A DNA stretch of 49,016 nucleotides, from NCBI GenBank assembly GCA_963738405.1, contig CAVTWJ010000003.1:1-49016 (forward strand). The letters run 5' to 3'. The notes beneath the pieces were generated by a model. That model ran no database searches. It had not been told where the DNA came from and saw only the letters and a program-made list of their open reading frames with translations. The position numbers and the translations under genes were made by a program. Each line of letters begins with the position of its first letter. Position 1 is the stretch's first letter. The stretch comes from a candidate division FCPU426 bacterium. GTDB taxonomy: Bacteria > Oederibacteriota > Muellerivitia > Muellerivitales > Muellerivitaceae. This document shows positions 19,858 to 40,542 of the stretch, piece after piece.

Positions 19858-19884
19858 TTCTTGGTGCCTTGGTGCCTTGGTGGT
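19858..19884. repeat. Solo arm of the REP/MITE-like element (copy 3)
   Basis: TTCTTGGTGCCTTGGTGCCTTGGTGGT with no partner arm nearby. Confidence 0.8.
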
Positions 19885-19923
19885 AAATCGTAGGGAGTTG
19901 TAAGATTAACCCAGTGAGGACCT

Positions 19924-20424: not shown

Positions 20425-20454
20425 AAAAACTTAACATTTCAAATTGACACGACA

Positions 20455-20874: not shown

Positions 20875-21161
20875 CGAGAGCGGCCCTTGCGCGTCTTGTC
20901 GATGATCCGGTTGATGTCCTTCAGGGAAAGCTTGTCTAGTCCGGCCTCCACGGAGGCAGTTTGCATCCTTTCCACCGCCGCGACCGCGCGCGCGCGGCGG
21001 ACGGCCGCCACCGAGTTTTCCACATCGGCGTCCTTGAGGGAAGAAAGAAGCGCCATGGGCTTGCCGTTGTTGGTCAGGATCAAATCCCCTTCTTTCGCCA
21101 AATCTTTCCAGACCTGACCGGATTTTTCCCTAAAGTCCCTGACGGAAATGAATTTAAGCAT
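20871..21161 (-). CDS. Phd/YefM-like antitoxin
   Basis: MLKFISVRDFR..LILTNNGKPMALL; GGAGGG RBS; overlaps the toxin start. Confidence 0.85.
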   Translation of the reverse strand: MLKFISVRDFREKSGQVWKDLAKEGDLILTNNGKPMALLSSLKDADVENSVAAVRRARAVAAVERMQTASVEAGLDKLSLKDINRIIDKTRKGRSR

Positions 21162-21173
21162 GAGTTCCCTCCA

Positions 21174-21198
21174 ATTGTGTACCATTAGTGTACACAAT
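21174..21198. promoter_or_regulatory. TA operator palindrome overlapping the promoter
   Basis: ATTGTGTAC-N7-GTACACAAT, overlapping a TTGAAA..TACACT promoter-like pair on the minus strand. Confidence 0.7.
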
Positions 21199-21399
21199 AT
21201 TTCATCATTTTCAAGACGGCACTGCGTGACACCCCCAAGGTCTATCAGGTTCATATCGGGAAGTACATCGCTGAATAATAAGCAGAGATCAATTTCTTTT
21301 TTTAGTCCTTCACAAAGTGGAAAATGGTGGCCAGATACCTTTTTTTTATTTGCATATCGGGAAATACATCGCCGAATAAAGTCTAAGTCCAAACCGATT

Positions 21400-21509
21400 T
21401 TCACCACCAAGACACAAAGACACCAAGGTAGGCCAAAAAGTTTTGGATTTACGTCTTTTTTCATCCCTGTTTAACGAAGTTCTTGGTGACTTGGTGTCTT
21501 GGTGGTGAA
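21400..21509. repeat. REP/MITE-like palindromic element, copy 4
   Basis: TTCACCACCAAGACACAAAGACACCAAG ... CTTGGTGACTTGGTGTCTTGGTGGTGAA. Confidence 0.85.
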
Positions 21510-21700
21510 TTTTTTTCGCTGTGATTTTTTTAACGGTTCAAAGAAAAGTTTGATTTTTTCTCCGTTTTTGAAATAAGGATCTTTTCGCCAAAGATAAATC
21601 CGCGATTGGTTGCCTGTCACGAAAGTCTTTCCCATTCCTTCCACCTAAATACCCGTAAATGAACTAATCTCTCTCTAGTTGAAAACGAAAGAGGCAAACC

Positions 21701-25019: not shown

Positions 25020-26381
25020 ATGGCCCTGTTTGAAAAAACTACCGAAATCCCAGTTCCTGTTGAAGAGCTCTTTAAATGGTACAGCCAACCCGCTGTCTTT
25101 AAGCGGCTGACACCCCCCTTTGAAAAGGTACGGGTTATTGAAAAGACCGGGGGGATTGAAGATGGGGCAAGGGTGGTTTTAGAGGCAGGCCCTTTCCGCC
25201 AAAGGTGGGAGGCCCTGCATAGGGATTATGTGCCGAACCGGCAATTTCGGGATGAGCAGGTGAAGGGGCCTTTTGCTAAGTGGGTCCATACCCATGGGTT
25301 TGAGCCTATATCCCAGGGAACCAGCAAGTTGATTGACCAGTTGGATTATCAATTGCCCATGGGGTTTCTAGGTTCCATAGCGGCGGGCGGATGGATGCGG
25401 AAAAAGCTCAACCGCCTTTTCGCCTTCCGCCACCGTCGGACCCTGAATGATTTGAAAAGAATTTATCCCCATTCCAAACCCCTGCGCATCGTAATGGCTG
25501 GGGCTTCCGGTTTAGTGGGGAGCGAACTGAAAACCTTCCTGTCTTGCGCCGGGCACGATGTGCATAGCCTCGTGCGGCATTTGGCGAACATCGAAAAGGG
25601 TGAAATCTATTGGGACCCAATAAAAAGAGAGATTGATAAGAACCTATTAGAGGGCGCCGACGCAGTGATCCACTTGGGCGGCGAAAATATAGGGGCTTCC
25701 CGATGGACCAAAGAACGAAAGGAAGCTATCCGCCAAAGCCGTGTCCAAAGCACCCGCTTTCTGGCTGAAACCCTGGCTACCCTTAACAACAAACCCAAGG
25801 TCTTTATCGTTTCCTCGGCCATTGGCTTTTACGGCAACCGGGGCGAGGAAGTACTGACCGAAGAAAGCCAACCGGGGAAGGGCTTTTTACCCGAAGCCTG
25901 CGAAGAATGGGAAAGGGCGGCGGATCCGGCTAGGTGGGCGAACCTAAGGGTGGTTCATGTAAGAACAGGAATTGTGTTATCCCTTTCGGGTGGGGCACTG
26001 CCCAAAATGCTTCTGCCTTTCCTGATGGGCGCAGGGGGCATTATCGGTTCGGGTAAACAATGGATGAGCTGGATCGCACTGGAAGACCTGGTGGGTATTT
26101 TTCACGAGTTGCTTTATCGGGAAGACCTATCGGGCCCGGTCAACGCTACGGCCCCTGGAACGGTCACGAACAGGGAATTCACGAAGGTTTTAGGAAAGGT
26201 ACTGCATAGGCCGACCATCGCCCCCTTGCCTGGTTTTGTGGTGAAGCTTCTTTTTGGCGAAATGGGGGAAGCATTGTTACTGGAAGGACAGAATGTTCAA
26301 CCCGCCAAATTATCCAAAGCGGGGTTTGAGTTTTTTTACCCCGAATTGGAACAGGCTCTGCGCTGGCAGTTGGGGCGTTAA
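25020..26381 (+). CDS. TIGR01777-family NAD-dependent epimerase with N-terminal SRPBCC domain
   Basis: FRDEQVKGPFAKWVHTH; AGASGLVG; SSAIGFYG; GPVNATAP; DUF1731-like tail. Confidence 0.9.
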   Translation: MALFEKTTEIPVPVEELFKWYSQPAVFKRLTPPFEKVRVIEKTGGIEDGARVVLEAGPFRQRWEALHRDYVPNRQFRDEQVKGPFAKWVHTHGFEPISQGTSKLIDQLDYQLPMGFLGSIAAGGWMRKKLNRLFAFRHRRTLNDLKRIYPHSKPLRIVMAGASGLVGSELKTFLSCAGHDVHSLVRHLANIEKGEIYWDPIKREIDKNLLEGADAVIHLGGENIGASRWTKERKEAIRQSRVQSTRFLAETLATLNNKPKVFIVSSAIGFYGNRGEEVLTEESQPGKGFLPEACEEWERAADPARWANLRVVHVRTGIVLSLSGGALPKMLLPFLMGAGGIIGSGKQWMSWIALEDLVGIFHELLYREDLSGPVNATAPGTVTNREFTKVLGKVLHRPTIAPLPGFVVKLLFGEMGEALLLEGQNVQPAKLSKAGFEFFYPELEQALRWQLGR

Positions 26382-26481
26382 CGGCTAGTCTTAAGAATAT
26401 ATACAGATCGATGATTGACCCAATTAGTCCCCCGTGGTGAACTATTCAAGATTAAATATTAAGAAGTTCGTTTAGGAAATA

Positions 26482-28572
26482 ATGAAACTTACATTTCCGT
26501 ATCAACCCCGGCTTCTTTTCCTATTGGTATTCATTTCCCTTTCCCTTGCGGCCTATTCACCATTCGACATCATTGTCAAAATCTGGATCTTCGTTTTGGG
26601 AGTTCTTTTCCCGGTCGGCTTGGGTATTTGGGGGATGGTGCATGAAAATGCTCCCTTGGAAGGGGAAACGCCCCCTTGGCGGGAAGAATTTCTTCCTTCG
26701 GTTTCCGGATGGGTTTGGGTCACCGCCGGAATTTTTATCCTTTCGGTTTATCTATATCGAATCACGCAAATTCCCCTTTGGCCCTGCATGGACGATGGTT
26801 TAATCGCCTTTTATTCGATGGAATTAAGCAAGAAATGGGATTGGCGTTTGATTTACGGCTTCTCCCAAGGCGAGCCCCTTTTCTTTTGGCTTTCCGCCCT
26901 GTTTTTTAAATGTTTCGGAAGGTCCCTTGATTCCATGCGCGTTTTCCCGCTCTTACTTTCCTTTCTCACGATGGGTGCCGCTTATTTCGCGGCAAGAAAA
27001 TATCTTTCGCGCTCGGTGTCTTTTTTCATCCTGGTTTTATACGGCTTGAATTATTGGAATCTGCTTGAGTCGCGCCGTTTTGAACGGCCCGATCTTATTT
27101 GTTTTTTTGAATTTTCAGCGCTTTACGCTTTGGCCCAATACCGCGGACAAACTCCCGGGAGAAAATGGATTTTCGGGGTCATCCTCGGGCTTTTATTGGG
27201 ATCGGGCATGTATGTTTACACCGCTTGGCCCGTTTTCGTGGCGGTAATCTTGTTGGCGGTCTGGTTTTTAGATCGTTCGGACGGGGAAAAAACAGGAAAT
27301 GGATTCGCGGCCGCGGTTGGGACCGCTTTCGTTGTGACATTGCCCATGGTTTTTGCCCGTTTGAAAATGGGAGGGCTTACCTACGCGACGGATTTATTGA
27401 GCGACAAAGCTCTTTTTCGATATGTCGGCTCACTATTTTTCAACGGATTTGGGGGAATGCCCCCCGCCTGGGGAGGCGTTCTTAACAGCCTGCTGGGTTC
27501 CTTTTTTTGGATTGGACTTGTGGAAACCCTCAGGTGGCGGAAAAACAAAACGATCCAGTGGATTTATATCACCGGTCTTTTAACTTTTCTGCCGGGAGGG
27601 CTTACCAGCCATGTGGAAATCTTCCGCGTTGGACTTCTTATCCCGTTCCTCATCTTTTTATCCGGTTGGGGGGCGGTGCGATTAATCAAGGATTGCGGCC
27701 CCCAACCTTACCGCCGCTGGGCGGTTTTAACTGCCGTCATTGTTTGTTCCCTAAGCCTTGATCTTTACCATTATTACGGGCCAACCCAAGATCAATATTC
27801 CCTTTCCCCTATCCCGAGCCATTGGGCCTCCATTCAACATTACCGGGCCTATGGGCTTTTGGAATCCCAGGCCGCCCAGGGAAATGGGGTTGAGATCTTG
27901 AATTATTTTGACGGCGCCCAAGAGGATTGGGCCTTCGACCTATTCGCCCAAGACACCAACAGCAAAAAACCGACCCGCGAAGATAAAACCAATCCGCGTG
28001 AGATTGCCCTTATCACCAATAGCAATTACCTGCCGTTCCTTGAAAAAAGATTTCCCGGTTCCCGCTGGCGGGAATTGGGCTCGGACCTTCCGATACAGGA
28101 GGGGGGATTGGCACTGGGAGAGTTGGTTTTCTCCGGGCGGAATAGCGGGATATTGGAATTTTGGCGGGAGGCTGACGCCCAGCTTGAGGACTTGACGGCC
28201 CAGAGCGCTTTTTTAAAGCCGCATGAATCTCCCCAAGCGGTCATCAACCAGCTCTTGGACCGAGAGCACGATTGGAACCAAGACCCTTTCTTGCAGGCCC
28301 AATGCGCTGAAAAAATAGCTGGTTTCGTTCTTCGGGACCCAATGCTTGACCGCCATGCGGCGATCAACTCCCTGAAGAAGGCCCTGGAGCGTTGCCCCGC
28401 GGCGAATCTTTATAACCTTTTGGGACTGTTATGGCTGGAGGTGGATCAGCCCCTCAAGGCAAAGGAGGCTTTCCAATCAGCCCTAAAAGCCCCGGTCAAC
28501 ACCACTTTGGCCGAAACGAATTTACGGAAACTTCAAAATTGGGCCAGAAACAACCATTTCAAAGGGATTTGA
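26482..28572 (+). CDS. GT-C fold (ArnT/PMT-like) membrane glycosyltransferase with C-terminal TPR
   Basis: Many TM helices; DDG after TM3; EPLFFWL..FGRSLDSMR; GSGMYVYTAW. Confidence 0.7.
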   Translation: MKLTFPYQPRLLFLLVFISLSLAAYSPFDIIVKIWIFVLGVLFPVGLGIWGMVHENAPLEGETPPWREEFLPSVSGWVWVTAGIFILSVYLYRITQIPLWPCMDDGLIAFYSMELSKKWDWRLIYGFSQGEPLFFWLSALFFKCFGRSLDSMRVFPLLLSFLTMGAAYFAARKYLSRSVSFFILVLYGLNYWNLLESRRFERPDLICFFEFSALYALAQYRGQTPGRKWIFGVILGLLLGSGMYVYTAWPVFVAVILLAVWFLDRSDGEKTGNGFAAAVGTAFVVTLPMVFARLKMGGLTYATDLLSDKALFRYVGSLFFNGFGGMPPAWGGVLNSLLGSFFWIGLVETLRWRKNKTIQWIYITGLLTFLPGGLTSHVEIFRVGLLIPFLIFLSGWGAVRLIKDCGPQPYRRWAVLTAVIVCSLSLDLYHYYGPTQDQYSLSPIPSHWASIQHYRAYGLLESQAAQGNGVEILNYFDGAQEDWAFDLFAQDTNSKKPTREDKTNPREIALITNSNYLPFLEKRFPGSRWRELGSDLPIQEGGLALGELVFSGRNSGILEFWREADAQLEDLTAQSAFLKPHESPQAVINQLLDREHDWNQDPFLQAQCAEKIAGFVLRDPMLDRHAAINSLKKALERCPAANLYNLLGLLWLEVDQPLKAKEAFQSALKAPVNTTLAETNLRKLQNWARNNHFKGI

Positions 28573-29794
28573 TCTTTCCAACTTCGGGCCAGATTCGGGT
28601 CACGGCCAATACCACCAAGATACAACCCAAACCTCCCAACACCACCGACGGCACCAAGCCCACCAGGGCGGCCGCCGCGCCCGATTCAAACCCGCCCAGT
28701 TCGTTGGAAGAATGGATAAAGATATAGCTTACGGAATTTACCCTGCCCCTCATGGCATCGGGCGTCAAAACCTGCACCAGGGTGCCCCGCACTATCACGC
28801 TTACCAAATCCAACCCGCCGGTTAAAAGCATCATCAAGAACGAAAGCCAAAAAATATTGGAAAGGCCGAAGATGATCGTGGCGGCGCCAAACCCGGCCAC
28901 CGCCCAAAGCAGGGTTTGACCCGCTTTTTTCATGGGCGGGAGATGGGTGATGAAAAGGGTGACCAGGAATGCGCCGAGTGAGGGAGCGGCTTGGAGCCAG
29001 CCCAAACCCACCGGACCGCAATGAAGAACATCATCGGCAAAGGCGGGAAGCATGGCCACCGAGCCGCCCAAAAGCACGGCGAAAAGATCCATCGTGATGG
29101 TGGCGAGGATCAATTTGTTTTTACGGACGAATCGCAGGCCCGTCAAAAGGGATTGCAGGCTGATGGGCTCGCGCTTGAAATTCAAAGGCGCCTGGCGGAT
29201 GGCCAAAACCGACGCGAAAAAAATCAATTCCAAGACCCCTTCCAAGCCGCAAACCTTTGAATAGCCGATCAGGGCGTAAAGCATTCCGCCTAGGGCGGGC
29301 CCTGCCACCGAGGAAATCTGGAAAACACTGCTGTTCCAGGTGATGGCGTTGGGAAAATCCTTCTTGGGCACCAATTGGGGCAACAGCGCTTGCCGTGCGG
29401 GATCGCAAAAGGCCCTGTTGAGGCCGGTGAGAAATAAAAAGAAATACATGAGGGGCAGCGGGGCCGGGCTGAAGGGGGCCAGGGCCAAACCCGCCGCGCA
29501 AAGCGCGTAAAGCAGGTTGCAGGCCAGAACGATGGTTTTGCGGTTGAAACGGTCGGCCATGGCGCCGCCCGCCAGCATGAAGAAAAAGATCGGGAGCCAA
29601 ATGGTTAGTCCCACCAGCCCTAAGGCCAAAAAGGAATGGGTTTGCTGGTAAATTTTGTACCCCACCGCCATTCGCAGCATCTGCTGGCCGATCACGGAAA
29701 GGGCGTTGCCAAAAATATAGTAACGATAATTGGCGTACCGAAAAGCGGCGTAGGGATCGAGGGTTTGTTTATGCCGGCGGGGTTTAGTCTTCAT
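28559..29794 (-). CDS. MFS transporter (EntS/MFS_3-like)
   Basis: GGAMADRFNRK, GPALGG, DLFAVLLGG, MRGRVNSV..SNELG. Confidence 0.92.
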   Translation of the reverse strand: MKTKPRRHKQTLDPYAAFRYANYRYYIFGNALSVIGQQMLRMAVGYKIYQQTHSFLALGLVGLTIWLPIFFFMLAGGAMADRFNRKTIVLACNLLYALCAAGLALAPFSPAPLPLMYFFLFLTGLNRAFCDPARQALLPQLVPKKDFPNAITWNSSVFQISSVAGPALGGMLYALIGYSKVCGLEGVLELIFFASVLAIRQAPLNFKREPISLQSLLTGLRFVRKNKLILATITMDLFAVLLGGSVAMLPAFADDVLHCGPVGLGWLQAAPSLGAFLVTLFITHLPPMKKAGQTLLWAVAGFGAATIIFGLSNIFWLSFLMMLLTGGLDLVSVIVRGTLVQVLTPDAMRGRVNSVSYIFIHSSNELGGFESGAAAALVGLVPSVVLGGLGCILVVLAVTRIWPEVGKIKSL

Positions 29795-29855
29795 GGGGGC
29801 GCATTTTACGGGGCGGGATGGAAAATAAAAAGGGTTGGGCCTGTACAATGGTCAC

Positions 29856-30674
29856 ATGCCTTATATAAGTACAGAACGTGGAAAATTTTACGTTGAGGAT
29901 TGGGGCGGACAAGGACCCGTCGTCTGTCTTCTTCATGGCTTAACTTGCAAGCATACCGATTGGAATGAAACGGCGGCTAAGTTGATGGAGGCGGGTTATC
30001 GGGTTGTTGCCCCCGATATGAAGGGCCATGGAAAAAGTGATAAACCCGAAACCGGATATTCCCCCGAGGACTTGGCGAAAGATTTGGGGGCCATTCTTGA
30101 AACCTTGGCGATTCCTCAAGTTCATGTGGTGGGGCATTCGACCGGCGGGCGAAACGGACTGGTTTTTGCCGGGCTTTTTGCCGAGCGAACCCTTTCCCTC
30201 ACCATCGTTGACCAGACCTTGACGGAGGATCACGCGCGATGGGTCGAAGCCAAGAAAGAATATGAAGAGTACCCAACTCCTTTTGCCGATGAGGCTTCAC
30301 TTGATCAATTTCTTAAGAGCCTATATCCGGATCGGCCCAAAAGGGTTGCTTTTGAAAAGGCCCAATTTGAAAAGAAGGATTCGGGCGCCTGGGATTGGAT
30401 TTTCTCCGTTCCAGCCGTATTGGAAACCCATAGGCTTGGTCGGGCCCAGGAACTGCTTTCTCAACTTGAGAAACTGAAATGCCCCGTTCTCTTTATTAAA
30501 GGGGGAGAAAGCAAATATGTATCCCTGGAAGAGGCGGAAAAGATTCAAAAGTTGATACAAAGGGGCCGTTTTGTGACCGTGGAAAAGGCCAAGCACGCTG
30601 TATTTCGGGATAACCCGGATGCCTTCCTAAAGGTTCTACTAGAGTTTTTACAGGAAGGTAAATCAAAGCCATAA
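29856..30674 (+). CDS. Alpha/beta hydrolase (YbfF-like esterase)
   Basis: [23 protein letters not shown]. Confidence 0.9.
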
Positions 30675-30807
30675 TCCTTTAAATTCCAAACCCTTTTCTG
30701 TATACTCACGCCTCCCCAAAGGCAATTTTCGTTGTTTTTTGTGGTTGAGCCGGTCAAAGACCCGCCAATAACTAACCGTACATAGCCGGGACAAAGAGGA
30801 TTTGTTT

Positions 30808-32673
30808 ATGACACGCAGGGAAGACTTACGCAATATCGCCATCATCGCCCACGTTGACCATGGAAAAACCACGCTCGTGGATGCCTTGTTCAAACAGTCG
30901 GGTGTATTTCGCGCCAATGAGCACATGGAAGAACGGGTCATGGATTCCAACGACCTGGAAAAAGAACGCGGTATCACCATTTTCTCCAAGAACGCCTCGG
31001 TTATTTGGAATGGGATCCGTATCAACATCGTGGACACGCCGGGTCACGCCGACTTTGGCGGGGAAGTGGAACGTATTCTTTCGATGGTGGATGGTGTTCT
31101 CTTATTAGTAGACGCCGCCGAAGGCCCCCTGCCCCAGACCAAGTTCGTTCTTCGCAAGAGCCTGGAACAAAACCTGGACGCTATCGTTGTCATCAATAAG
31201 ATCGACCGAAAAGATGCCCGCCCCCACGAAGTGGTGGACGCGGTGTTGGACCTCTTTATTGCCTTGGGCGCCAATGAGCACCAAATCGGCTACCCGGTGG
31301 TTTATGCCGTTGCCCGTGAAGGCAAGGCATCGATGAGCCTTGAACAACCCGGTACGGACTTAAAGCCGCTTTTTGACACCATCGTGAACCATTTCAAACC
31401 TGTTGAAGTGGATTTGGAATCGCCTTTCCAAATGTTGGTCACCACGACCTCTTATAACGAATACCTGGGGCGTATGGCCGTGGGACGCGTCAAGCGCGGC
31501 AAGATCAAGCTGAACGATCCTATTACCCTCATCAAGCTGGATGGCCGCAAGGTCAACAGCAACGCCACCAAACTTTTTACCTACAACGGCATCAAGCAGG
31601 TCGAGTGCCCGGAAGCACAGGCGGGGGATATCATCCTCTTAGCCGGATTGGAAGACGTGCAAATCGGGGAAACAGTGGCTTCCACCGATGATCCAACCGC
31701 TTTGCCTTCTATCGCCATCGACGAACCCACCATGTCCATGGTTTTCTCGGTCAACAACAGCCCCTTCGCCGGTAAAGAAGGGAAGTTTGTGACTTCCCGC
31801 CACTTGCGGGACCGCTTATATAAAGAAGCTGAAGCCAACCCCACCTTGAAAATCAGCGATACCGAAAGCCCGGACGCCTATAAAGTGGCGGGCCGCGGTG
31901 AATTGCACTTGGGCATCTTGATTGAAACCATGCGCCGTGAAGGTTTCGAGTTCCAGGTTTCCAGGCCCCAGGTTATTTTCAAAATGGTGGATAAGAAACT
32001 GGAAGAGCCTTACGAAAACCTGATCGTGGACGTTCCCAACAATTGCGTGGGGATTGCCATGGAAAAATTGGGAGCCCGCAAAGGCGAAATGAAGAACATG
32101 GTGCCCTTATCTGAAGTGGCCACCCGTATTGAGTTTTTGATTCCTTCACGTTGTCTCTTGGGTTTCCGCACCGAATTCATGACTGACACAAAGGGTGAAG
32201 GCGTTTTGCACCATGTGTTTTCCGGATACGGCGAATACAAGGGCGATATCGGCGGAAGAAGCCGGGGCGTTCTGGTGGCTTTTGAAGCGGGCGTGACCGC
32301 AGCTTACGGCATGTTCCAGTTGGCCGACCGTGGAAAGTTTTTCATCAACCCCCGCTTGGAAGTTTATGAGGGCATGATTGTGGGCGAGCATACCCGCGAA
32401 AACGATATCGCGGTGAACCCCTGCAAAACCAAGCATTTGAGCAACATGCGAAGCAAGTCTTCTGATGAAGCCTTGACCATGGAACCACCCACCATTTTCT
32501 CATTGGAACAATGCCTGGAATACATTCAGGACGACGAGCTTTTGGAAGTGACACCCCAGAACCTGCGCATGCGTAAGAAGATTTTGAACAATAACGAGCG
32601 CATGAAGGCGGAGAAACAGACAGCCAAGTCTTCGATGAAGCAGATCATGGAACAGGTCAACCCAAGGGCTTAA
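30808..32673 (+). CDS. typA: Translational GTPase TypA/BipA
   Basis: [48 protein letters not shown]. Confidence 0.98.
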
Positions 32674-32779
32674 GTATTAAGGCAGGCGTTGGCTTGCCTA
32701 AGGTTTGCTGCCCTCTCATTGTTATCCCTGCAATTCCCAGTGAACATTTTATTTAGAATGGTTTTGATACAATAAAGCC

Positions 32780-33241
32780 ATGAAACCCCTTCGGATATAC
32801 CTGGATACCTCAGTGTTTGGCGGGTATTTCGACAAGGAATTTTCGAGAGATTCCGCTAGGATTTTTGGTGCGGTTCGTGAAGGACGATTGAAAATTGTTT
32901 TGGGTGGGTTGGTCGGATTGGAGTTGAGGGCGGCTCCCATAGAGGTCCGGGATTTGTTGAAATCCCTTCCGACGGAACAAGTGGAGGAAGTTGAATTCAG
33001 CCGGGAGGCCGAGGATTTGCAAACGGCCTATTTGGAAGCGGGCATCCTAACGCCTAACTCGGCCACAGACGCGGGCCACGTGGCAACGGCCACAGTTTAC
33101 CGGGCGGACGCTATTGTGTCGTGGAACTTCAAACACATCGTTCGGCTTGAAAAAATGAAGCTGTACAACCAGATTAACCTAAAGAATGGGTACGGGTTTT
33201 TGCAGATCGTTTCACCGAGGGAGGTGTTGAGCGATGAATGA
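32780..33241 (+). CDS. PIN-domain protein (toxin-like)
   Basis: IYLDTSVFGGYFD, DAGHVATA, IVSWNFKHIV. Confidence 0.88.
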   Translation: MKPLRIYLDTSVFGGYFDKEFSRDSARIFGAVREGRLKIVLGGLVGLELRAAPIEVRDLLKSLPTEQVEEVEFSREAEDLQTAYLEAGILTPNSATDAGHVATATVYRADAIVSWNFKHIVRLEKMKLYNQINLKNGYGFLQIVSPREVLSDE

Positions 33242-33431
33242 GGAAAAACCGAAGATTATAGAGGGGTTCGACTGCATCGCCTTCAAGCGCAAAGTGCAGG
33301 AACAAATCTATCAGGAAACGAAAGATATGACGCCGGAACAGTATTTAGAATATGTCCACCGGAGCGTTCAAGAAGGCGAGATGGGCGAGATATGGCGGAA
33401 GTTTCAGAAAAAACCGGCCGCCAGGGGTTAA
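33234..33431 (+). CDS. Small putative antitoxin
   Basis: GGAGG RBS; overlaps the PIN stop; FDCIAFKRKVQEQIYQETKDMT. Confidence 0.7.
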   Translation: MNEEKPKIIEGFDCIAFKRKVQEQIYQETKDMTPEQYLEYVHRSVQEGEMGEIWRKFQKKPAARG

Positions 33432-33442
33432 AGAAACCTAGT

Positions 33443-33655
33443 ATGAAATTAAATTATGATAAAAATACAGATTCTCTTTATATCGAACTATCCGAAAATC
33501 CGAGCGTGGATAGCAATGAGGTTTCGAACGGAGTCGTTTGGGATTTTGATAAAAGTGGAATATTGGTTGGAATTGACGTGCAACATGCCAGTCAAACCTT
33601 GGATTTGAAACACTTAGAAACGGGTTCTCTGCCTTTGGCAGCTTCTGGTAAATAA
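33443..33655 (+). CDS. DUF2283 family protein
   Basis: MKLNYDKNTDSLYIEL..DFDKSGILVGIDVQHAS. Confidence 0.85.
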   Translation: MKLNYDKNTDSLYIELSENPSVDSNEVSNGVVWDFDKSGILVGIDVQHASQTLDLKHLETGSLPLAASGK

Positions 33656-33758
33656 AACTCAACCTTTTAATAATTAACAACATGAAGTGCATGAAGGCGG
33701 AAAAGCAGACGGCCAAGTCTTCGCTGAAGTTGGCCATGGAACAGGTCAACCCAAGAGC

Positions 33759-34109
33759 TTAAGCGGGAAGGTCGCTTTTGGTAGTCTTTTCTTTGGCCTT
33801 AAAAAACTTTGCCGCTTCTGACAATAGAATCCATACCCAAAACGGAATAAATGTAAGCGCCATGGATATAAGGAATGCCATTGCATTTCCGCTGTCCTCT
33901 TTATATTTCAAGAATCTTAAAACGTATTGACTGCCGAAACAAAGAGATGAAATTGGAACGAGAATCCAACACCAATAGGCAAACGCAGCAACTATCACAA
34001 ACCTCATTTTCGTAATTTTGGTCAGAGGGAATATCTTTTTCACTGTCAAATACTCTAAAAATGCCCCCGTCAATCCAGTCAAAAAACCAAAAAAGATAGC
34101 TATTAACAA
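33759..34109 (-). CDS. Small AT-rich membrane protein (3 TM)
   Basis: GAGGAG RBS before TTG; three hydrophobic stretches. Confidence 0.65.
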   Translation of the reverse strand: MLIAIFFGFLTGLTGAFLEYLTVKKIFPLTKITKMRFVIVAAFAYWCWILVPISSLCFGSQYVLRFLKYKEDSGNAMAFLISMALTFIPFWVWILLSEAAKFFKAKEKTTKSDLPA

Positions 34110-34259
34110 TTTCTACTCCTCAACTTAACAAAACTGTTTTAGGAATTATTGGCGATTATGCGGAGATGAACAAGATGTGTTATTTTCAATCAAATTGAGA
34201 TTAAGGTTTTCAAAGCTTTCCCCCTTTTGATTACTCCAGACGACCATTACAATAGCCCA

Positions 34260-34751
34260 ATGTTTTCAAGGCTTTTTCCCTTACTTCTAATCGTGCTCCT
34301 TTTAGGCATATGCCTGCCCTCTCACGTTCATGCGGATGATTGGGGAACCACTACGACTACCGATGATGAGGATGAAAACATTAAAGGCGGCTTTGCCCCG
34401 CCTTATGAATATGAACGCCAGGCCTATGGTTACGATCCTGAGGGTGTGACTTATAAAGAGAATCAGGCGGAAGATTTTCAGGTTATTTTCATCACCTCCA
34501 CCCCCTTCACGGCGATGGCAAGTTTCGTTATTTATGGCACGGTTTCCCTTGTTAATGACGGCACTTTTGGCATTGGGGGAGATTTGTTTTTGCCCTTTGT
34601 GGGCACGGCCTTGGCGGGTTCAACCGCTATTGCCTGTATTTCCGTATTTTCCAATTCTTATCCACCCCCTAACCAAATTTCCCAATTGGGAAACCCGAAT
34701 CAGTCGATGGCCTTCGCTTTCCAAATTCCTTTGGTAACCGCTAAGTTTTGA
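34260..34751 (+). CDS. Hypothetical exported/membrane protein
   Basis: Signal peptide ending VHA, acidic segment, two hydrophobic segments, C-terminal Phe. Confidence 0.7.
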   Translation: MFSRLFPLLLIVLLLGICLPSHVHADDWGTTTTTDDEDENIKGGFAPPYEYERQAYGYDPEGVTYKENQAEDFQVIFITSTPFTAMASFVIYGTVSLVNDGTFGIGGDLFLPFVGTALAGSTAIACISVFSNSYPPPNQISQLGNPNQSMAFAFQIPLVTAKF

Positions 34752-34761
34752 ATCAAAGATT

Positions 34762-34931
34762 TTCACCACCAAGGCACATGCCGACCCTCCATAAGAATTT
34801 AACGAGGTCGGTATAGTCCTGATTCCCTTAGCCCTTTGGGCTAAGGAGGACAAAGACACCAAGAAAACCCTTACTTTTTAAACCTTCATCTGTGATTTGG
34901 CTTTCCTTGGTGACTTGGTGTCTTGGTGGTT
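34762..34931. repeat. REP/MITE-like element copy 5, left arm interrupted by a double-hairpin insert
   Basis: ..ACCACCAAGGCACA [insert] AAGACACCAAGAA ... CTTGGTGACTTGGTGTCTTGGTGGT. Confidence 0.8.
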
Positions 34932-35033
34932 AGGCTGGTTGGTTTAAAGCTTTTCAAACTTTTTTATCGGTTCGGGATGAAATTCAGATTAAAATAAACC
35001 ACTTTTTCGACTGATGGGCCAAGGAGCCGAGGA

Positions 35034-36020
35034 ATGTTAAAACGATTTTTAGTTTCGACGGTCTTTTTGATGTTCGCTGGATGGGTTCAGGGACAGGACA
35101 TGCCGCCCCTACCCGAAACCCCTGGAGGAACTCCGGCAGGCAACACAGCCCAAGCTACCACAGCGCCCGCATTACCCCCCTTGCCCGATAATGGAAGCAC
35201 CGCCTCTACTTCCTCTTCCTCTTCCGCTCCCACCCTTCCGCCTTTGCCGGGTGCGGCGGCCTCAACGGATAATTCCTCCCAACCTCCTCCTTTGCCAGGA
35301 ACAACATCCACCAGCGCAAGCCCTGCTTTGCCGCCCTTGCCTGATCAAGGAACGGCCCCGGTGCCGCCTGGCGGCGCTTCGACTTCCTCTTCCATGCCAC
35401 CCCTTCCCACAAACGGCTCGACGACCGCTTCACCTTCGATGCCGCCATTGCCCGATAACGGCTCGGCATCCACTGGTTCCACCCAACCTCCTGCCACGAC
35501 CGCACTGCCCGCCGCTTCGGATGCCTCCAAGGAAGCCAAAGTGAGCGGCCATCCTCGTTCAAGCTGGCCTGTCCCGCCCGTTCAACCCAACGTGATTTTC
35601 GGCGGGTGGGTTCGCGGCAAAGGCGGCAATCCCACCTCGCGGATCGCTTGGGCCTCCCAAGAAGTTATGAACGCCCTCATATTTAAAGGCTACAAGAACC
35701 TGGATGATCAAGAAAAAGGGAATTACCAGGGCCAACCCGGAGACCAATGGCGTTCGATGTTTTTCACAACTCCCAAATCGAAGATTACTGTTCAGGTTTA
35801 TGTGAAGCCCGAAGGCAAAAAGGTGTGGCTGAGGGTGGGGCCGGATGAGCCGCCCGCCGGCGAGAAAATGGCCAAGGTCGTTCAGTTGAAAGATGAGGAT
35901 TGGAAGGCGCTTCAGATTATTCGTCACCAATTAAAAGGTCGGATGCTTCCCCATGAAATTAGGGTGGTTCGTGACTGGTCTGCCCCTTTCCACAGGCCGC
36001 AAGAAACCGCGGATGAATAG
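35034..36020 (+). CDS. Secreted protein with Pro-rich (xPPLP) repeats and a globular C-terminal domain
   Basis: AAGGAG RBS, signal peptide, seven PPLP motifs in Ser/Thr/Ala linkers. Confidence 0.8.
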   Translation: MLKRFLVSTVFLMFAGWVQGQDMPPLPETPGGTPAGNTAQATTAPALPPLPDNGSTASTSSSSSAPTLPPLPGAAASTDNSSQPPPLPGTTSTSASPALPPLPDQGTAPVPPGGASTSSSMPPLPTNGSTTASPSMPPLPDNGSASTGSTQPPATTALPAASDASKEAKVSGHPRSSWPVPPVQPNVIFGGWVRGKGGNPTSRIAWASQEVMNALIFKGYKNLDDQEKGNYQGQPGDQWRSMFFTTPKSKITVQVYVKPEGKKVWLRVGPDEPPAGEKMAKVVQLKDEDWKALQIIRHQLKGRMLPHEIRVVRDWSAPFHRPQETADE

Positions 36021-36035
36021 GAAGAACCTTAAATA

Positions 36036-36206
36036 ATGGGCTCCTTCCGTCTTTCTTTTGTTTTTTATGGAATCGGAATCGCCGGATTACTTTTTTCCCT
36101 TATTCGAACCTACCATCTGGTTTGGAAACTCAAGAAAGAACGGGAATTGGCCCCCTCGCATGGAAGGCGGGGAAAGGACCTTAGCCCAACCCCTAAGAAA
36201 AATTAG
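36036..36206 (+). CDS. Putative 56-aa single-pass membrane protein (below the ORF-track cutoff)
   Basis: MGSFRLSFVFYGIGIAGLLFSLIRTYHLVWKLKKE.. fills the gap between co-directional genes. Confidence 0.45.
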   Translation: MGSFRLSFVFYGIGIAGLLFSLIRTYHLVWKLKKERELAPSHGRRGKDLSPTPKKN

Positions 36207-36261
36207 GTAAGGCGCAGTCAAACTTCACTTTTTATCACTGTCATCCCAATTCCACCTGGAG

Positions 36262-36747
36262 GTGGTTATGTCGACCCGTCAACAATCTATAACGAAAGAT
36301 TTCTTAAGGGATGTCAGCCTCTTTGACGGGTTAACCGACAAGAATTTGTCCCAGCTTTTCAAGATTGGGAAGGTACGGAACTTTAAAGTGGGTGAATTGA
36401 TCCTCAAAGAAGGCCAAGAGGGCGGGAATCTGCATATTATGATCGATGGCCGTGCGGAAGTTTTCAAATCCGGCAGGGAGCCCAATTCCAAACCCAAGTA
36501 CTTGGCTGAGCTGAACCGCGGGTCCATTTTTGGCGAGATGAGCGTGTTTGACGAGGCGCCCTATTCGGCCACCATCAAGGCCTGCGGGGATTGCTCGATT
36601 CACGTGATCAAGGGCGACGATTTTAAAAATTTCCTTAAGAAGAATCCTGAAATCGCCTATGAGGTTTTCACAACCCTGATCCTTCAGTTTTCCAGCCGTT
36701 TGCGCAGGACCAATTTGGCCCTCAGCCTTCTTGATTTCGGTTCCTAA
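36262..36747 (+). CDS. Stand-alone cyclic-nucleotide-binding domain protein
   Basis: LFDGL, ILKEGQEG, GSIFGEMS..PYSATIKA; no HTH; start at GTG 36262 or ATG 36268. Confidence 0.88.
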   Translation: MVMSTRQQSITKDFLRDVSLFDGLTDKNLSQLFKIGKVRNFKVGELILKEGQEGGNLHIMIDGRAEVFKSGREPNSKPKYLAELNRGSIFGEMSVFDEAPYSATIKACGDCSIHVIKGDDFKNFLKKNPEIAYEVFTTLILQFSSRLRRTNLALSLLDFGS

Positions 36748-36972
36748 ACCTTAAAACTCACTTTTGTCTCCCGGTTGAGCAAGCACGGGCCATTGTTTCG
36801 GTCTTGGCCGAAAACCTCAACATTTAGGGGTTTAAAAGGTTTTGACAACCACCTGTGGGAATGTTAAATTTTGGCAAATAGTGTTGGGCTTCTTCATTTC
36901 TTGGTTTCTTCGCCTTCGGATTCCATATCAACGCCCCCAGTAACACCCTAAGACACTCACGGAGAAATACGC

Positions 36973-39900
36973 TTGTTCCTAAAAAAACTCGAAATCCACG
37001 GATTCAAATCCTTCGCAGATAAAACCGAACTGATTCTTGAGACCGGAATCACGGCGGTAGTAGGGCCCAACGGCTGCGGCAAAACCAACGTGTCCGACAG
37101 CATCCGGTGGGTCATGGGAGAGCAATCCGCGAAGGGGTTGAGGGCTTCCGAAATGACGGATGTCATTTTCAACGGAACCGACGTTCGCAAACCCGCCAGC
37201 ATGGCGGAGGTGACCTTGACTCTTTCAAACGAGGACAAGGCCATTCCCCTGGAGTTCAATGAAATTTCCATTACCCGCAGGGTTTACCGATCCGGCGAAT
37301 CCGAGTACCTCATCAACAAAGCCACCGCCCGCCTGAAGGATGTCCGGGAACTCTTCATGGGAACGGGGCTGGGCATCAGCGCCTACTCCATTATGGAACA
37401 AGGCAAAATGGATCAGATCGTCACCTCCAAACCCACCGAGCGCCGGGCCTTGTTTGAGGAAGCCGCCGGAATTACCCGGTACAAAGCCCGCAAGGTAGAG
37501 GCTTTGCGCAAGTTGGAAGCCACCGAACAGAACCTGGTTCGGGTCGCCGATATCATCGCCGAAATCAAAAGGCAAATTTCGACCCTGGAACGGCAAGCCA
37601 AGCAGGCTGAGAAATACCGTAAATATAAAGAAGACCTCGGCAAGCTCCAGGTGCTTCTGCATTTAGATAAAACCGTCAAACTCAAGGAAAAGCTCAAGGA
37701 ATTGGAACATAAAACCGCCCAGGTGCGAGCCAAAATGGACGAGGCCCAAGGCGATACCCACAAGCTGGAGCAGGACGAAAAGCAGCAGCGTTCCCGGCTG
37801 GCCGAAATTGAGGAACAGTTATCCCAAACGAGGGAGCAGGCCTACAAGGTTCATAGCGAAGTTGAGCTGACCCAGGGCCGGATGGAAGGCACCAAACGCC
37901 ACAAGGATTTGTTGGCGGATCAAAGGGGAAGAAACGAACAGCAGGTGGCCGAGGCGGTGGCCCGCATTGAGAATTTGAAAATTTGGATCACCGAGCGCCG
38001 GCAGATGGTTTCCAACAAGGAAAGCCAGAAGTCGGAAAAGGAATCCCAAAAGCGCGGCTTGGTGGAAAAATTATCCGCCCTCGACGGCGACCTCAACGCG
38101 AAAAACCAGGATTTGGAAAATAAAAACAGCGCGGCGGTGGATTTGGTCACGAAAGCCGCCCAAATGCGGGCCGAGTTGGAATCCCTAAGGTCCCAGGACG
38201 CTGAAACCTCCAAGCGGGTCCAGGATGTGACCGATCAGCTGAACCGGGCGGAAGCGGGCCTTTCCGATTCCTCGCGGATGCTGGAAGAATTCAGACAAGC
38301 CAAGTCCAAGGCCCAGTCGGACGAGGCCCAAACCGTCGAGTCGATTGTCTCGACCCAGTCATCCCTTTCCCAGCAAGAAACAATGCTGGATGAAATTAAC
38401 GCCTCTCTGCGCCAGCTCAACAACCAGCATTCCGAGGTCCGTTCTCGATTCGGAGTGCTTGAGGAACTTCAAAACAAATTGACGGGCTACGATCCGGGCG
38501 TCAAGGCGGTCCTGCAGGCCAAGCAAAACGAGCCCTTGATGTGGCAGGAAGTGTTGGGAGTGGTGGCGGATCTTTTATCTGTCGATCAGTCTCTTGAAAG
38601 TGCGGTTGAAAATCTGCTGGGGAGCCAGCTTCAATCCCTGGTTGTCCAAAATCGTAAGACTGCCGCAAGGGTGGTTGAGTTTTTGAAAGCCGAGGGACAG
38701 GGAAAAGTTTCACTTTTGGTGCTGGAAGATCTGCTTTCCGGTTCCGGAACCTCGATCCCTTCGGGAGAGGGCCATGTGGGCCCCTTGCCTGAATCGGTGA
38801 AATTCCAACCCGCGTTGGAGCCAATGGTCCGCTTCCTATTGGGCGACGGGCATCTGGTGGAAGATTGGTCCGTGGCGGAAAGAATGAGTGAACAGTATCC
38901 CACCCGGCGTTTTGTGACCCGGGATGGGGACCGCCAGGGCCCGAAGGGCTCCTGGAAGGCAGGCTCCGCGGTTACGGGTTTTTCCCTTTTAGGGCGTCAC
39001 CGTGAAATGACCGAGTTGAACGACCGGATCAAGTCCCTGGAAGCCGATATCCAGGCGGGCGAGCAAAAATTAATCGATTCCAAGAAAACACGCAAAGAAA
39101 CCGAGGATGTGCTTTTGGCATCCGAATCCCGGCGCCAGCAATTGAAAATCCTTTTGGCGGAGACTGAAAAAGAACTCCACCGTTTGGATGAAACCAAAGC
39201 GAGACTGGAAGGCGAGAAGACGGAACTCGAAAAGGAAAGGCAGGGCCTGGAAGCCCATTGGCAGGCGGATAAGAACCGCGTGGACCAGCTTTCCGTGCTT
39301 TTGTCCCAGAGTGAGCAGGCCCAGAACCTGACCCAAGAGGAAATCGCCGAGGCGCGTAAATCCCTTCAAAACCTGCGGGACCGGAGGGAAGAATTGTCCC
39401 GGCTCGTGGTTCAGGCCGAATTGGAATTGGCGGCCATGGATGAGATGGCGCTTCGGGCCCAGGAAGAAGCCGACCGCTACCAGCTGGAGCAGGACCAGTT
39501 GACCCAATCCATCGCCCTGAAAAAAGACGAAAACCAGCAATTGGAGAACCAGGACCGGCAGTTATCGCTGGACCTGTCGGACTTGGAACAAAAGGCCGGG
39601 GGCCTGACGAATTCCAAAAAAGAGGCGGATGAAAAGGTCCAGGCCGTCTTGACCCAGAGGGAAGGCGTGGCTGCGGAGACCGAAGAGCGCATTGAGAAGG
39701 TGAAAAAGTCCCGCCTGAAGCTTGAAGAGGTCCAAAGGGAACTGCACGGTTTCGCCGTTCAAGAAGCCCAGATCGGCGTTGAGATCCGCAACTACGAGGA
39801 AAAATTGCAGGTGGAATACAAGGTCGACCTGGACAACCCGCCGGTCACTCCCCAGGAGGGTTTTGACTCGGCCGCCGCCGAAACCGAATCCATAGAACTG

Positions 39901-40542
39901 CGGGCCAAAATCGAGCGGCTGGGGCTGGTGAACATGGTGGCCATGGAAGAATATGACGAACTTTCCCAAAGGTTCAAGTTTCTCAGCGAACAACAGGAAG
40001 ATTTGTTGAAGGCCAAGGATGATCTTCAAAAGGCCATTAACAAGATCAATCTGACCTCCAAAGAACTTTTCACGTCCACCTTTTCCACCGTTCAAGAAAA
40101 TTTCAAAGATATCTTTCAACGACTTTTCGAAGGCGGCCGCGCGGAACTGATTTTGATCGATGAGGGGGATGTTTTGGAGTCGGGTATCGAAATTGTGGCC
40201 CGTCCTCCGGGAAAAAGGCTTCAATCCGTCTCGCTCTTGTCAGGCGGAGAAAAGGCCCTGACGGCTATCGCGCTTTTGTTCGCGCTCTTTATGGTGAAGC
40301 CCAGTCCCTTTTGCCTCTTGGATGAAATTGACGCGCCCCTGGATGACGTCAATGTGGGCCGTTTTACCCACTTGCTGAAGGAATTCAGCAAACGTACCCA
40401 GTTCATCATGATTACCCATAACAAGGTCAGCATGGAAACGGGGGACATCCTTTACGGAGTGACAATGCAGGAATCGGGTGTTTCCAAAATCATTTCGACC
40501 AAATTCAAAGAAAACAAGGCTGAGGAAACGGCGGTTAATTAA
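36973..40542 (+). CDS. smc: Chromosome segregation protein SMC
   Basis: GFKSFAD, GPNGCGKTN, coiled coils, hinge, LSGGEK, LLDEIDAPLD. Confidence 0.98.
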   Translation: MFLKKLEIHGFKSFADKTELILETGITAVVGPNGCGKTNVSDSIRWVMGEQSAKGLRASEMTDVIFNGTDVRKPASMAEVTLTLSNEDKAIPLEFNEISITRRVYRSGESEYLINKATARLKDVRELFMGTGLGISAYSIMEQGKMDQIVTSKPTERRALFEEAAGITRYKARKVEALRKLEATEQNLVRVADIIAEIKRQISTLERQAKQAEKYRKYKEDLGKLQVLLHLDKTVKLKEKLKELEHKTAQVRAKMDEAQGDTHKLEQDEKQQRSRLAEIEEQLSQTREQAYKVHSEVELTQGRMEGTKRHKDLLADQRGRNEQQVAEAVARIENLKIWITERRQMVSNKESQKSEKESQKRGLVEKLSALDGDLNAKNQDLENKNSAAVDLVTKAAQMRAELESLRSQDAETSKRVQDVTDQLNRAEAGLSDSSRMLEEFRQAKSKAQSDEAQTVESIVSTQSSLSQQETMLDEINASLRQLNNQHSEVRSRFGVLEELQNKLTGYDPGVKAVLQAKQNEPLMWQEVLGVVADLLSVDQSLESAVENLLGSQLQSLVVQNRKTAARVVEFLKAEGQGKVSLLVLEDLLSGSGTSIPSGEGHVGPLPESVKFQPALEPMVRFLLGDGHLVEDWSVAERMSEQYPTRRFVTRDGDRQGPKGSWKAGSAVTGFSLLGRHREMTELNDRIKSLEADIQAGEQKLIDSKKTRKETEDVLLASESRRQQLKILLAETEKELHRLDETKARLEGEKTELEKERQGLEAHWQADKNRVDQLSVLLSQSEQAQNLTQEEIAEARKSLQNLRDRREELSRLVVQAELELAAMDEMALRAQEEADRYQLEQDQLTQSIALKKDENQQLENQDRQLSLDLSDLEQKAGGLTNSKKEADEKVQAVLTQREGVAAETEERIEKVKKSRLKLEEVQRELHGFAVQEAQIGVEIRNYEEKLQVEYKVDLDNPPVTPQEGFDSAAAETESIELRAKIERLGLVNMVAMEEYDELSQRFKFLSEQQEDLLKAKDDLQKAINKINLTSKELFTSTFSTVQENFKDIFQRLFEGGRAELILIDEGDVLESGIEIVARPPGKRLQSVSLLSGGEKALTAIALLFALFMVKPSPFCLLDEIDAPLDDVNVGRFTHLLKEFSKRTQFIMITHNKVSMETGDILYGVTMQESGVSKIISTKFKENKAEETAVN

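Follow-up and report, generated by a model that had tools for sequence, protein, structure and literature searches.

A toxin-antitoxin-type cassette between two diverged copies of the typA gene end, and its probable capture by homologous recombination without a recombinase of its own

Nobusato et al. are said to have described, in 2000, the insertion with long target duplication of restriction-modification (RM) gene units. Here we analyzed a 49,016-nt stretch of DNA from a candidate division FCPU426 bacterium (GenBank assembly GCA_963738405.1, contig CAVTWJ010000003.1, positions 1 to 49,016 of the forward strand; hereafter the window), in which a putative toxin-antitoxin (TA) cassette lies directly behind the gene typA and the end of typA is found on both sides of it. 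We argue that the cassette, which has no integrase gene, probably entered by a single crossover within the end of typA, so that the apparent duplication would consist of the resident and the incoming allele. In the RM cases, as described in the available part of Furuta, Abe and Kobayashi (2010; PMC2853133), the direct repeats are longer than 30 bp, vary in length, and match a target that is present in a single copy at the empty site; the same text treats small addictive units without mobility genes located between conserved genes, and proposes a virus-like cycle via the repeats. A later review, as far as its available text goes, mentions long target duplication for RM systems only (Mruk and Kobayashi 2013; PMC3874152). 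The RM cases share with the typA insert an addictive cargo, the lack of a mobility gene and, in some instances, an overlap with a gene 3' end (PMC2853133, available part). According to the same part of that source, however, the two repeats of an RM unit are 95-100% identical to each other, whereas the repeats described here are 75-97% identical, with mostly synonymous differences; in the rows listed there for Helicobacter pylori, the RM repeats match one another better than they match the empty site; and the driver suggested there, DNA breakage by the restriction enzyme, has no counterpart in a TA cassette. Among the features by which such insertions were defined, we found at typA an empty site, repeats of more than 30 bp that align with the target, and an insert below 20 kb without mobile-element genes; homologues of both R and M genes were not found, the cargo being a PIN-like gene, a gene for a 65-aa partner, and a DUF2283 gene. 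In its working, the typA insert resembles the RM cases, yet it falls outside their definition in that paper: the RM cargo consists of R and M genes, whereas the cargo of the typA type is a type II toxin-antitoxin pair.

Integrative elements at gene 3' ends leave an attL/attR repeat and replace the resident gene end by the incoming one, and integrase-less derivatives are known as cis-mobilizable elements (CIMEs), as at fda in Streptococcus thermophilus. Elements of this kind resemble the typA insert in the repeated gene 3' end, in the replacement of that end, and in that their own integrase may be lacking; they differ in that all 27 bracketed loci of the PIN family described below are without a nearby integrase, and in that the targets are many and unrelated, the repeated extent is variable, and the cargo is a single TA operon. 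At rhs, cdiA, and type VI secretion system (T6SS) effector loci, C-terminal displacement brings in a new C-terminus together with a protective gene and leaves the old end orphaned downstream, behind a fragment of the gene. There, as would be the case at typA, incoming DNA recombines in a conserved part of a gene and the old end is pushed downstream; unlike those loci, typA is a housekeeping gene with an allelic tail, and the toxin and its partner are separate genes. The minimal mobile elements of Neisseria spread by homologous exchange in the core genes on either side. In a 2026 study of Photorhabdus, TA-only islets are attributed, in the available text, to mobile-element erosion and double-crossover exchange, and the sole duplication noted there, at one TA operon, is that of a res-like palindrome of 24 bp (PMC13617665). 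Islets of this type are similar to the typA case in being tiny TA-only spots without mobile genes, in their spread among relatives by host recombination, and in the reuse of an intergenic spot with other cargo; however, the models in the part of the study available rest on a double crossover in both flanks, which leaves no repeat, whereas at typA one homologous arm is present twice, as two alleles. Full-text literature searches, with supplements outside their scope, returned no TA cassettes described with long target duplications or with allelic duplications of a gene end.

The organization of the typA locus is as follows.

30802 to 32673, forward strand: typA/bipA, a 623-aa open reading frame (ORF) with its first ATG at 30808; the host gene with the repeated end.
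32587 to 32674, forward strand: repeat copy 1 (attached), the last 24 typA codons including the stop codon, plus about 15 weakly matching upstream bases.
32675 to 33675, forward strand: the inserted cassette, 1001 nt, with three ORFs in the orientation of typA and without a recombinase.
33676 to 33763, forward strand: repeat copy 2 (the displaced typA tail), with its reading frame intact and the stop codon at the same place.
33759 to 34109, reverse strand: an orphan membrane-like ORF of 116 aa, 33-38% GC, directly after copy 2.
34227 to 34751, forward strand: a conserved downstream gene of 174 aa, which marks the far side of the site and has tblastn matches in six genera.

The host gene was identified by its Pfam matches (GTP_EFTU 7e-53, BipA_C 3.4e-46, EFG_C 1.3e-21), and orthologues at 73-90% nucleotide identity were present in 23 of the 24 other family genomes searched. 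An initial annotation, made from the letters alone, had reported that the last 24 typA codons recur 1089 nt downstream without a gap, and a repeat search of the window gave exactly this: positions 32587-32674 are repeated at 33676-33763 (88 nt, 84% identical, ungapped, 1089 nt from start to start). As copy-versus-copy blastn returned 87.2% identity over 78 nt with an E value of 8.6e-23, the repeat is not due to chance. Copy 1 ends 1 nt past the typA stop codon. The codon comparison of both copies agreed with the earlier count of four synonymous changes among seven changed codons; the other three are non-synonymous, so that the C-terminal peptide of TypA is indeed affected, the encoded tails differing at 3 residues. 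The nine nucleotide differences are split 3/2/4 over the three codon positions, and the pair counts as 5 synonymous and 5 non-synonymous differences. The longest exact blocks common to the two copies measure 20 and 12 nt, which is compatible with an att core and equally with any two alleles. A diversity-generating retroelement was considered and rejected as a candidate: A stands at five of the nine differing sites in copy 1 and at two of the nine in copy 2, and no reverse transcriptase was found among the scanned ORFs.

We compared the source genome (G000; 23 contigs, 3.18 Mb, 90.66% complete) with its relatives, which bear the other G numbers. The survey of the DNA downstream of typA across the clade that had been suggested in the initial annotation revealed empty sites in six genera (G005, G006, G012, G015, G016, and G022), with a gap of 48-280 nt from the typA stop codon to the match of the downstream gene; in other genera, ordinary genes spanning 1.1-8 kb lie between the two. 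In the congener G003, typA is followed by unrelated DNA up to the contig end, with no cassette in the 1.2 kb after typA. In the congener G001, the interval measures 8.2 kb and holds transposase genes of the insertion sequence types IS4, IS200, and IS110 together with another PIN gene, and no tyrosine recombinase was found between typA and the downstream gene. Within this interval, 50 nt at 92% identity remain from the 3' end of the gene for the 65-aa partner (at 9194-9243 of locus L021, that is G001:C3:96000-108900 read in the orientation of typA), and therefore the same cassette lineage was once at this locus in a sister species. About 100 nt past the remnant, at 9348-9390 of L021, the start region of the downstream gene recurs over 43 nt (81%), in front of a 162-aa ORF; this second copy may belong to another repeat-flanked insert. 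For the 116-aa ORF behind copy 2, comparison with 40 relatives, Pfam, and NCBIfam gave no match, and no separate repeat accompanies it; its low-GC DNA and the lack of a match in these relatives indicate a further insert without a repeat. Two typA tails, 83% identical over 94 nt, are present in G008 (L028 and L029, at the contig end of G008:C2 and on G008:C5): one is attached to typA, and the other, at least 94 nt long, lies at a contig end and is followed by the native 7 kb. In sequence, this second tail resembles that of the congener G023. Either an event of the same kind took place at this site in another genus or strains were mixed in the bin.

This last case bears on the question of whether the arrangement in the window could have been made by assembly or binning, with the typA ends of two strains joined in one contig of a metagenome-assembled genome (MAG). 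The source is a 23-contig, 90.66% complete assembly, and the second tail of G008, being at a contig end, could reflect strain mixing. Read-level data were available as Logan contigs from three soil-metagenome runs of one study, which left 32661-33264 uncovered. A 309-nt contig of run X1 spans 33565-33873, and thus the end of the cassette, copy 2, and the downstream ORF, with zero differences. Since this separate contig covers the right junction unchanged and the longest exact block is 20 nt, too short for k-mer assemblers to join the copies, and since the same layout occurs inside long contigs and in the one-contig genome G029, we regard an artefact as very improbable. A 161-nt contig of run X3 (about 86% identical) links 32591 to 33691 with 10 other letters, its shorter side measuring only 27 letters; most simply, it is the typA tail of a relative that aligns better to copy 2, and we drew nothing from it.

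We then considered whether the copies diverged in place or had been separate alleles. Divergence was pooled over 17 hand-chosen coding blocks (522 codons), 8 from the source genome and 9 from elsewhere, in which the repeat lies in register within the 3' end of a neighbouring gene that encodes 143 aa or more. These blocks contain 125 synonymous and 65 non-synonymous differences (dS 0.47, dN 0.058), which gives a dN/dS of 0.124 with a bootstrap range over blocks of 0.074-0.204; the blocks of the source genome gave 0.205 and those of other genomes 0.067. An unfiltered set of 20 automatic blocks, with four doubtful short ORFs and two gapped pairs included, gave 0.204 (0.10-0.38). For a copy drifting in situ, the expected pairwise dN/dS is about (w+1)/2, i.e., at least 0.5. 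Premature stop codons are absent from all 17 displaced copies. Of the 15 blocks that extend to the final stop, 13 retain it, two of these with another stop codon. Because the differences are mostly synonymous and the pooled dN/dS is 0.12-0.20, both copies appear to have evolved as working gene ends, and thus two alleles were brought together. The direction of change could be read for a repeat at a ZIP-transporter gene, where orthologues share the state of the attached copy at most differing sites (13 vs 3 for G001) and 11 of the 13 changed codons are synonymous. Therefore, the changes occurred on the lineage of the displaced copy and, being mostly synonymous, indicate that this copy evolved inside a working gene elsewhere. 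The same polarization of a repeat at an MFS gene was uninformative, with orthologues at 69-76% identity.

The rival account of these data is a long target duplication made in situ, in which breaks about 90 nt apart were filled in around the insert and the copies, identical at first, diverged afterward. It draws on the precedent of RM units without mobility genes, two of which overlap a gene 3' end in Haemophilus influenzae (PMC2853133, in the part available); in addition, the repeat boundaries are sharp, typA alone shows 5 synonymous against 5 non-synonymous differences, and the cassette remnant of G001 allows an old event. However, the pooled dN/dS of 0.12 (0.20 unfiltered) is far from the value of 0.5 or more that it predicts, the displaced copies keep their frame and stop codon, and at typA and at the G001 repeat of the TPR site described below they carry residues of the real alleles of relatives. 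Moreover, the bracketing repeats in public data are all at or below 97.2% identity, and the divergence of the typA repeat equals species-level typA divergence, yet G003 has no cassette in the 1.2 kb of contig behind typA and G001 only a 50-nt remnant. We therefore judged duplication in place to be unlikely.

To place the two tails, both copies were put into an alignment with the typA ends of 18 orthologues. In the displaced tail, SSLKLAMEQ, L and A are the residues of both congeners, and the tail as a whole is similar to those of the same genus (SSLRMAMEQ and SSLRQAMEQ); the attached tail, SSMKQIMEQ, resembles tails of other genera such as SSAKQIMEE (the M/K-Q-I pattern). The nine differing sites form a mosaic when scored against the congeners (11x2x2221 for G003, 112211221 for G001), as would be expected of a crossover inside the repeat, with numbers too small to place that crossover. 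In the comparison with orthologues by which the initial annotation had proposed to recognize the ancestral end, the nine-site mosaic does not single out one copy. Within the last 200 nt of typA, there was a slight, non-significant excess of identity to G005 over G003.

The typA insert is not the only case in the window. A first instance, at 19924-21281, concerns the end of a TPR gene.

19924 to 20424: the TPR gene, whose last 44 coding nt are repeated (20381-20427 and 21235-21281).
20455 to 20874, reverse strand: a PIN_3 gene (PIN_3 E 3.5e-21).
20871 to about 21164, reverse strand: a Phd-like gene (PhdYeFM E 1.1e-4).

The repeat at this site measures 47 nt (87%, spacing 854), and the sequence match with relatives ends at the end of the TPR gene. 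As had been noted before, the TPR-site repeat is unrelated to that of typA: no repeat family joins the two sites. The same TPR gene end in the congener G001 has a 336-nt repeat (93%) around an ATPase gene and a PIN_3 gene that is 29% identical to the one in the window; the end has thus been reused with different extents, 47 nt in the source genome versus 336 nt in its congener. A self-comparison of the whole assembly for direct repeats of 38-200 nt, at least 78% identical and spaced 0.4-3.5 kb apart, listed 43 pairs, 24 of which were inspected; TA-type genes are bracketed in 12 of the 24, the two window cases included. The bracketed cassettes comprise PIN with VapB, Phd with PIN and RHH, Phd with ParE, RES with an Xre-like gene, Zeta, HepT, DUF4258, UPF0150 (HicB-like), RHH, and a paralogue of the PIN family of the typA cassette. 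Their repeats are 39-171 nt long, 79-95% identical, sharp-ended, and mutually unrelated, and some of the bracketing repeats span 5' ends or intergenic DNA. Among PIN, PIN_3, ParE, and PIN-family toxin genes of the source genome, 9 of 24 were bracketed, compared with 11 of 240 random ORFs of 90-200 aa. We also observed, at G000:C6:3747-5311, three adjoining PIN cassettes (PIN with VapB at 3788-4479) separated by a palindromic 30-nt element; this array is of a different kind from the typA case, as it has no host-gene repeats.

The same PIN family as that of the typA cassette was found in 14 of 41 genomes of the phylum, and it is bracketed in G029, G027, G008, and G033, the repeat being the 3' end of a long gene in the first three. 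Scans of public metagenome and genome contigs yielded 160 loci of the family, with 42-61% protein identity, in Cyanobacteria, Bdellovibrionota, Planctomycetota, Acidobacteriota, Verrucomicrobiota, Omnitrophota, Nitrospirota, Bacteroidota, and other phyla. Of the 102 loci with enough flanking sequence, 27 are bracketed by repeats of 35-257 nt that are 75-97% identical, with no bracketing repeat above 97.2%. Tight bracketing (spacing of at most 1500 nt) was observed in 23 of the 102 loci, compared with a mean of 4.4 of 98 and a maximum of 9 in 200 trials with random windows placed in the same loci; in 11 of the 102, repeats were present and none bracketed the PIN gene. The inserts are compact, the repeat spacing being 710-940 nt in 12 of these loci, with no junk DNA. 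Genes flanking the inserts include housekeeping genes (ketol-acid reductoisomerase, FtsW/RodA, RF3, GlmS, Mur ligase, and tRNA methyltransferases) and otherwise defence genes. The 27 bracketed loci have 70 flanking ORFs with a length of 170 aa or more. No integrase, resolvase, or transposase family was matched by any of these at E<=1e-5, and one of them matched RVT_1. These results extend the earlier statement that the same process acts at unrelated targets to at least 12 TA-type cassettes with unrelated repeats in the source genome, and to a PIN family that is bracketed across phyla.

The absence of recombinases leads to the other main alternative, namely that the insert is a remnant or hitch-hiker of a conventional integrative element, with an attP that mimicked the end of typA and an island eroded down to its TA genes, or with mobilization in trans. 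An attL/attR pair at a protein gene would give the same geometry and the same coding-type divergence, and TA islets of Photorhabdus are attributed, in the available text of that study, to the loss of neighbouring mobile-element genes (PMC13617665). There are nine PF00589 matches in the source genome, all on other contigs. In G002, on contig G002:C23, a homologue of the cassette has a 311-aa Phage_integrase gene (E 1.7e-44) as a neighbour at a distance of about 400 nt, and this proximity to a tyrosine recombinase speaks for a recombinase-borne origin or mobilization in trans; however, the 5.6-kb G002 contig has no typA-like sequence. A DNA search found no typA in G002 (86% complete). There is no recombinase or fragment of one in the 1001-nt insert, and none was found among the Pfam-scanned ORFs from 25020 to 40542, in line with the initial description of a TA-type cargo (the PIN-like gene, the 65-aa partner, and DUF2283) without an integrase. 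Nor is any of the 70 large flanking ORFs of the 27 bracketed loci a recombinase, and the inserts are compact, with a repeat spacing of 710-940 nt in 12 public loci. An integrative origin would further call for equally many att specificities to explain at least 12 unrelated repeats in one genome; it does not account for repeats that vary from 35 to 336 nt, and from 47 to 336 nt at one gene end in two congeners, nor for those that lie over 5' ends or intergenic DNA. Terminal inverted repeats or conserved cassette termini were absent from the 23 tightly bracketed loci and from the window, and, as regards the attC site of an integron gene cassette, no family-wide inverted-repeat element occurs at the cassette ends, although no search aimed at intI was made. 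We hold the integrative account to be unlikely. The preference of the initial annotation for homology-driven capture over one site-specific integrase was strengthened by the unrelated repeats of 35-336 nt, the 0 of 70 recombinases, the dN/dS of 0.12-0.20, and the TPR gene end with 47 versus 336 nt.

The cassette itself contains three genes.

32780 to 33241, forward strand: the PIN-like toxin gene, 153 aa, whose own PIN_3 match is weak and falls short of the cut-off (E 0.0026).
33234 to 33431, forward strand: the 65-aa partner and putative antitoxin, which overlaps the end of the PIN gene and has no Pfam match.
33443 to 33655, forward strand: an orphan DUF2283 gene, 70 aa (Pfam PF10049, E 8.1e-16).

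Its composition is composite, with about 48-57% GC in the PIN/partner module and about 39-41% in the DUF2283 gene. When 20 members of the PIN family were aligned, 15 of the 20 matched PF13470 (best E 2.9e-8) and 9 of the 20 matched PF01850; Y7, T10, E48, D97, S114-W115-N116, and H119 were invariant, and D9 was kept in at least 90%. All 20 homologous loci have a small ORF behind the PIN gene; in 17 of them, its start lies 4 nt ahead of the point where the PIN match ends. The complex of the PIN protein with the 65-aa partner was predicted with a score of 0.86 (median of three runs; best control 0.01), a value reached by 116 of 157 solved complexes and by 2 of 215 mismatched pairs, these counts being rough because own alignments were used. 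Contacts coincide between the runs to at least 93%, and the predicted local distance difference test (pLDDT) value of the partner is 80 or higher; as complexes of the VapBC type are among the solved ones, the pass may reflect likeness to them. The predicted interface covers PIN residues 10-11, 46-53, 92-97, and 115-116, beside the conserved acidic residues. On the grounds of the PIN matches of the family, the conserved acidic residues, the constant small ORF, and the predicted complex, we read the pair as a toxin-first PIN toxin-antitoxin module, with toxicity and neutralization as predictions. Pairs of the VapBC type are alike in having a PIN-like protein with conserved acidic residues and a small overlapping partner, here predicted to lie over the active-site face, and they differ in that the order here is toxin-first and the partner matches no recognized family or DNA-binding domain. 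A profile search of the PIN protein against PDB sequences gave only an unrelated match (E 0.11), and neither the PIN protein nor its partner had an NCBIfam or PADLOC match. Among 72,556 plasmid records, the PIN protein matched three, all from Leptospira (41-44% identity), and it had no match among phage records. In the tightly bracketed PIN loci elsewhere, only 159-286 nt separate the PIN gene from the start of the second repeat copy, enough for the small partner and no more, so that the DUF2283 gene is missing from the other PIN cassettes; it is probably a second, nested module. This gene has no DUF4258 neighbour and hence does not form a DUF4258/DUF2283 pair at the locus; a DUF4258 cassette occurs elsewhere in the genome, at G000:C14:273125-273445. 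In a promoter and terminator scan of 32500-34400, sites were no more numerous than in shuffled sequence.

For capture through the end of typA, we propose the following course. The donor DNA would have come from a related lineage in which the PIN/partner operon stood directly behind the donor's own typA tail. A single crossover with the resident tail, either as a Campbell-type integration of a circle or with an ends-in linear piece, would have produced the order now observed: typA ending in one of the tails (perhaps a chimera), followed by the cassette, by the second tail, now a dead copy, and by the former downstream DNA. The typA gene would have been kept intact, as the repeated segment runs through the stop codon, with its last residues possibly exchanged. 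Recombination from arm to arm would release a one-armed circle, ready for the next related host. Inserts would persist, since repeats of about 85% identity recombine poorly and the loss of a TA pair is penalized, and for the same reason only diverged repeats would be seen. In this course of events, we infer the single crossover, the circular or ends-in form, the route of DNA entry, the dependence on RecA, and the stabilization by divergence and addiction. As regards natural transformation, which the initial annotation named as a possible route, ComEC (PF03772), which is present in one copy in all 18 other family members searched, was not found in the 90.66% complete source assembly, and its absence is probably an assembly gap.

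Several observations weigh against this proposal. The 17 blocks were hand-chosen, and the dN/dS of the unfiltered set is weaker evidence. The counts for typA alone (5 and 5) are compatible with an old in-situ duplication, and it is the pooled data that decide; the remnant in G001 likewise allows an old insertion. The mosaic sites leave the resident and donor copies of the typA end not cleanly assigned, and 90-nt identity windows against two congeners and three genera gave no clear foreign tract upstream of the typA repeat. Arms of about 90 nt that are 84-87% identical, and exactly alike over no more than 20 nt at a stretch, should undergo homologous recombination only very rarely. For this organism, the Logan contigs, which lacked 32661-33264, showed neither a circle junction nor a hybrid repeat nor an empty site. 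The closest homologue of the cassette (76% nucleotide identity), on G002:C23, lies about 400 nt from a tyrosine recombinase gene. In addition, 10 of 18 coding cases have the end of the repeat at -3 to +4 nt from the stop codon of the host gene, and a 94.7%-identical pair is among the 10 (the 18 cases are those of the window at 32674 and 20427, those on other contigs of the source genome, L082, L093, L130, L221, L227, L233, L246, and others). This regularity is not predicted by simple homologous capture; faster decay of non-coding sequence can explain it only for the more diverged pairs, and the placement at the host stop codon hints at a further insertion rule.

Other repeated features were observed in the same genome. 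Palindromic elements of about 110 nt (CACCAAGGCACCAAGACACCAAGAA plus its complement) lie in intergenic DNA of the window at 16402-16523, 18675-18848, 19858-19892, and 21379-21514. The copy at 21397-21509 has matches of 71-100% identity at dozens of places in the source genome and in further genomes of the family, so that the palindromes look like a family-wide element similar to repetitive extragenic palindromic (REP) sequences or miniature inverted-repeat transposable elements (MITEs). A 37-nt repeat (97-100% identical) is present in at least 10 copies on G000:C12:144389-155823 and in three copies on C4:5-1230 (other strand); on C12, the copies are 1.1-3.6 kb apart with ORFs between them, and twice they are paired at 67-75 nt. 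It resembles a clustered regularly interspaced short palindromic repeat (CRISPR) in form, with a spacing wrong for an array. At 7951-10244, adjoining PilT/T2SSE-type ATPase paralogues of 367 and 396 aa (8342-8682 vs 9376-9716) are about 67-72% identical over 150-345 nt and form an ordinary tandem pair.

How chromosomal TA genes move without a mobility gene is an old open question, for which the current accounts are the erosion of mobile elements and double-crossover exchange. We concluded that the typA locus is a well-preserved example of a widespread, recombinase-free settlement of TA operons behind conserved genes. It offers a testable route, homologous capture through a single arm that leaves two alleles of a host gene end, and a signature that can be searched for in any genome, namely imperfect direct repeats of low dN/dS around a TA operon. 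The pattern extends insertion with long target duplication beyond RM units to another addictive class and points to a different origin of the repeats, and such insertions rewrite the C-terminal tails of conserved proteins, e.g., TypA. More tentatively, as a possibility that we rate somewhat below even, such TA operons could be autonomous, recombinase-free elements that carry a 35-340-nt host-gene end as a "homing arm," integrate, probably as minicircles, by host recombination behind the orthologous gene in any related recipient, and regenerate the circle by recombination from arm to arm. If so, the divergence of the arms together with addiction would lock the element in, and each jump would exchange the C-terminal residues of a housekeeping protein; the process would operate in many phyla and would account for a quarter or more of the loci of at least one widespread PIN family.

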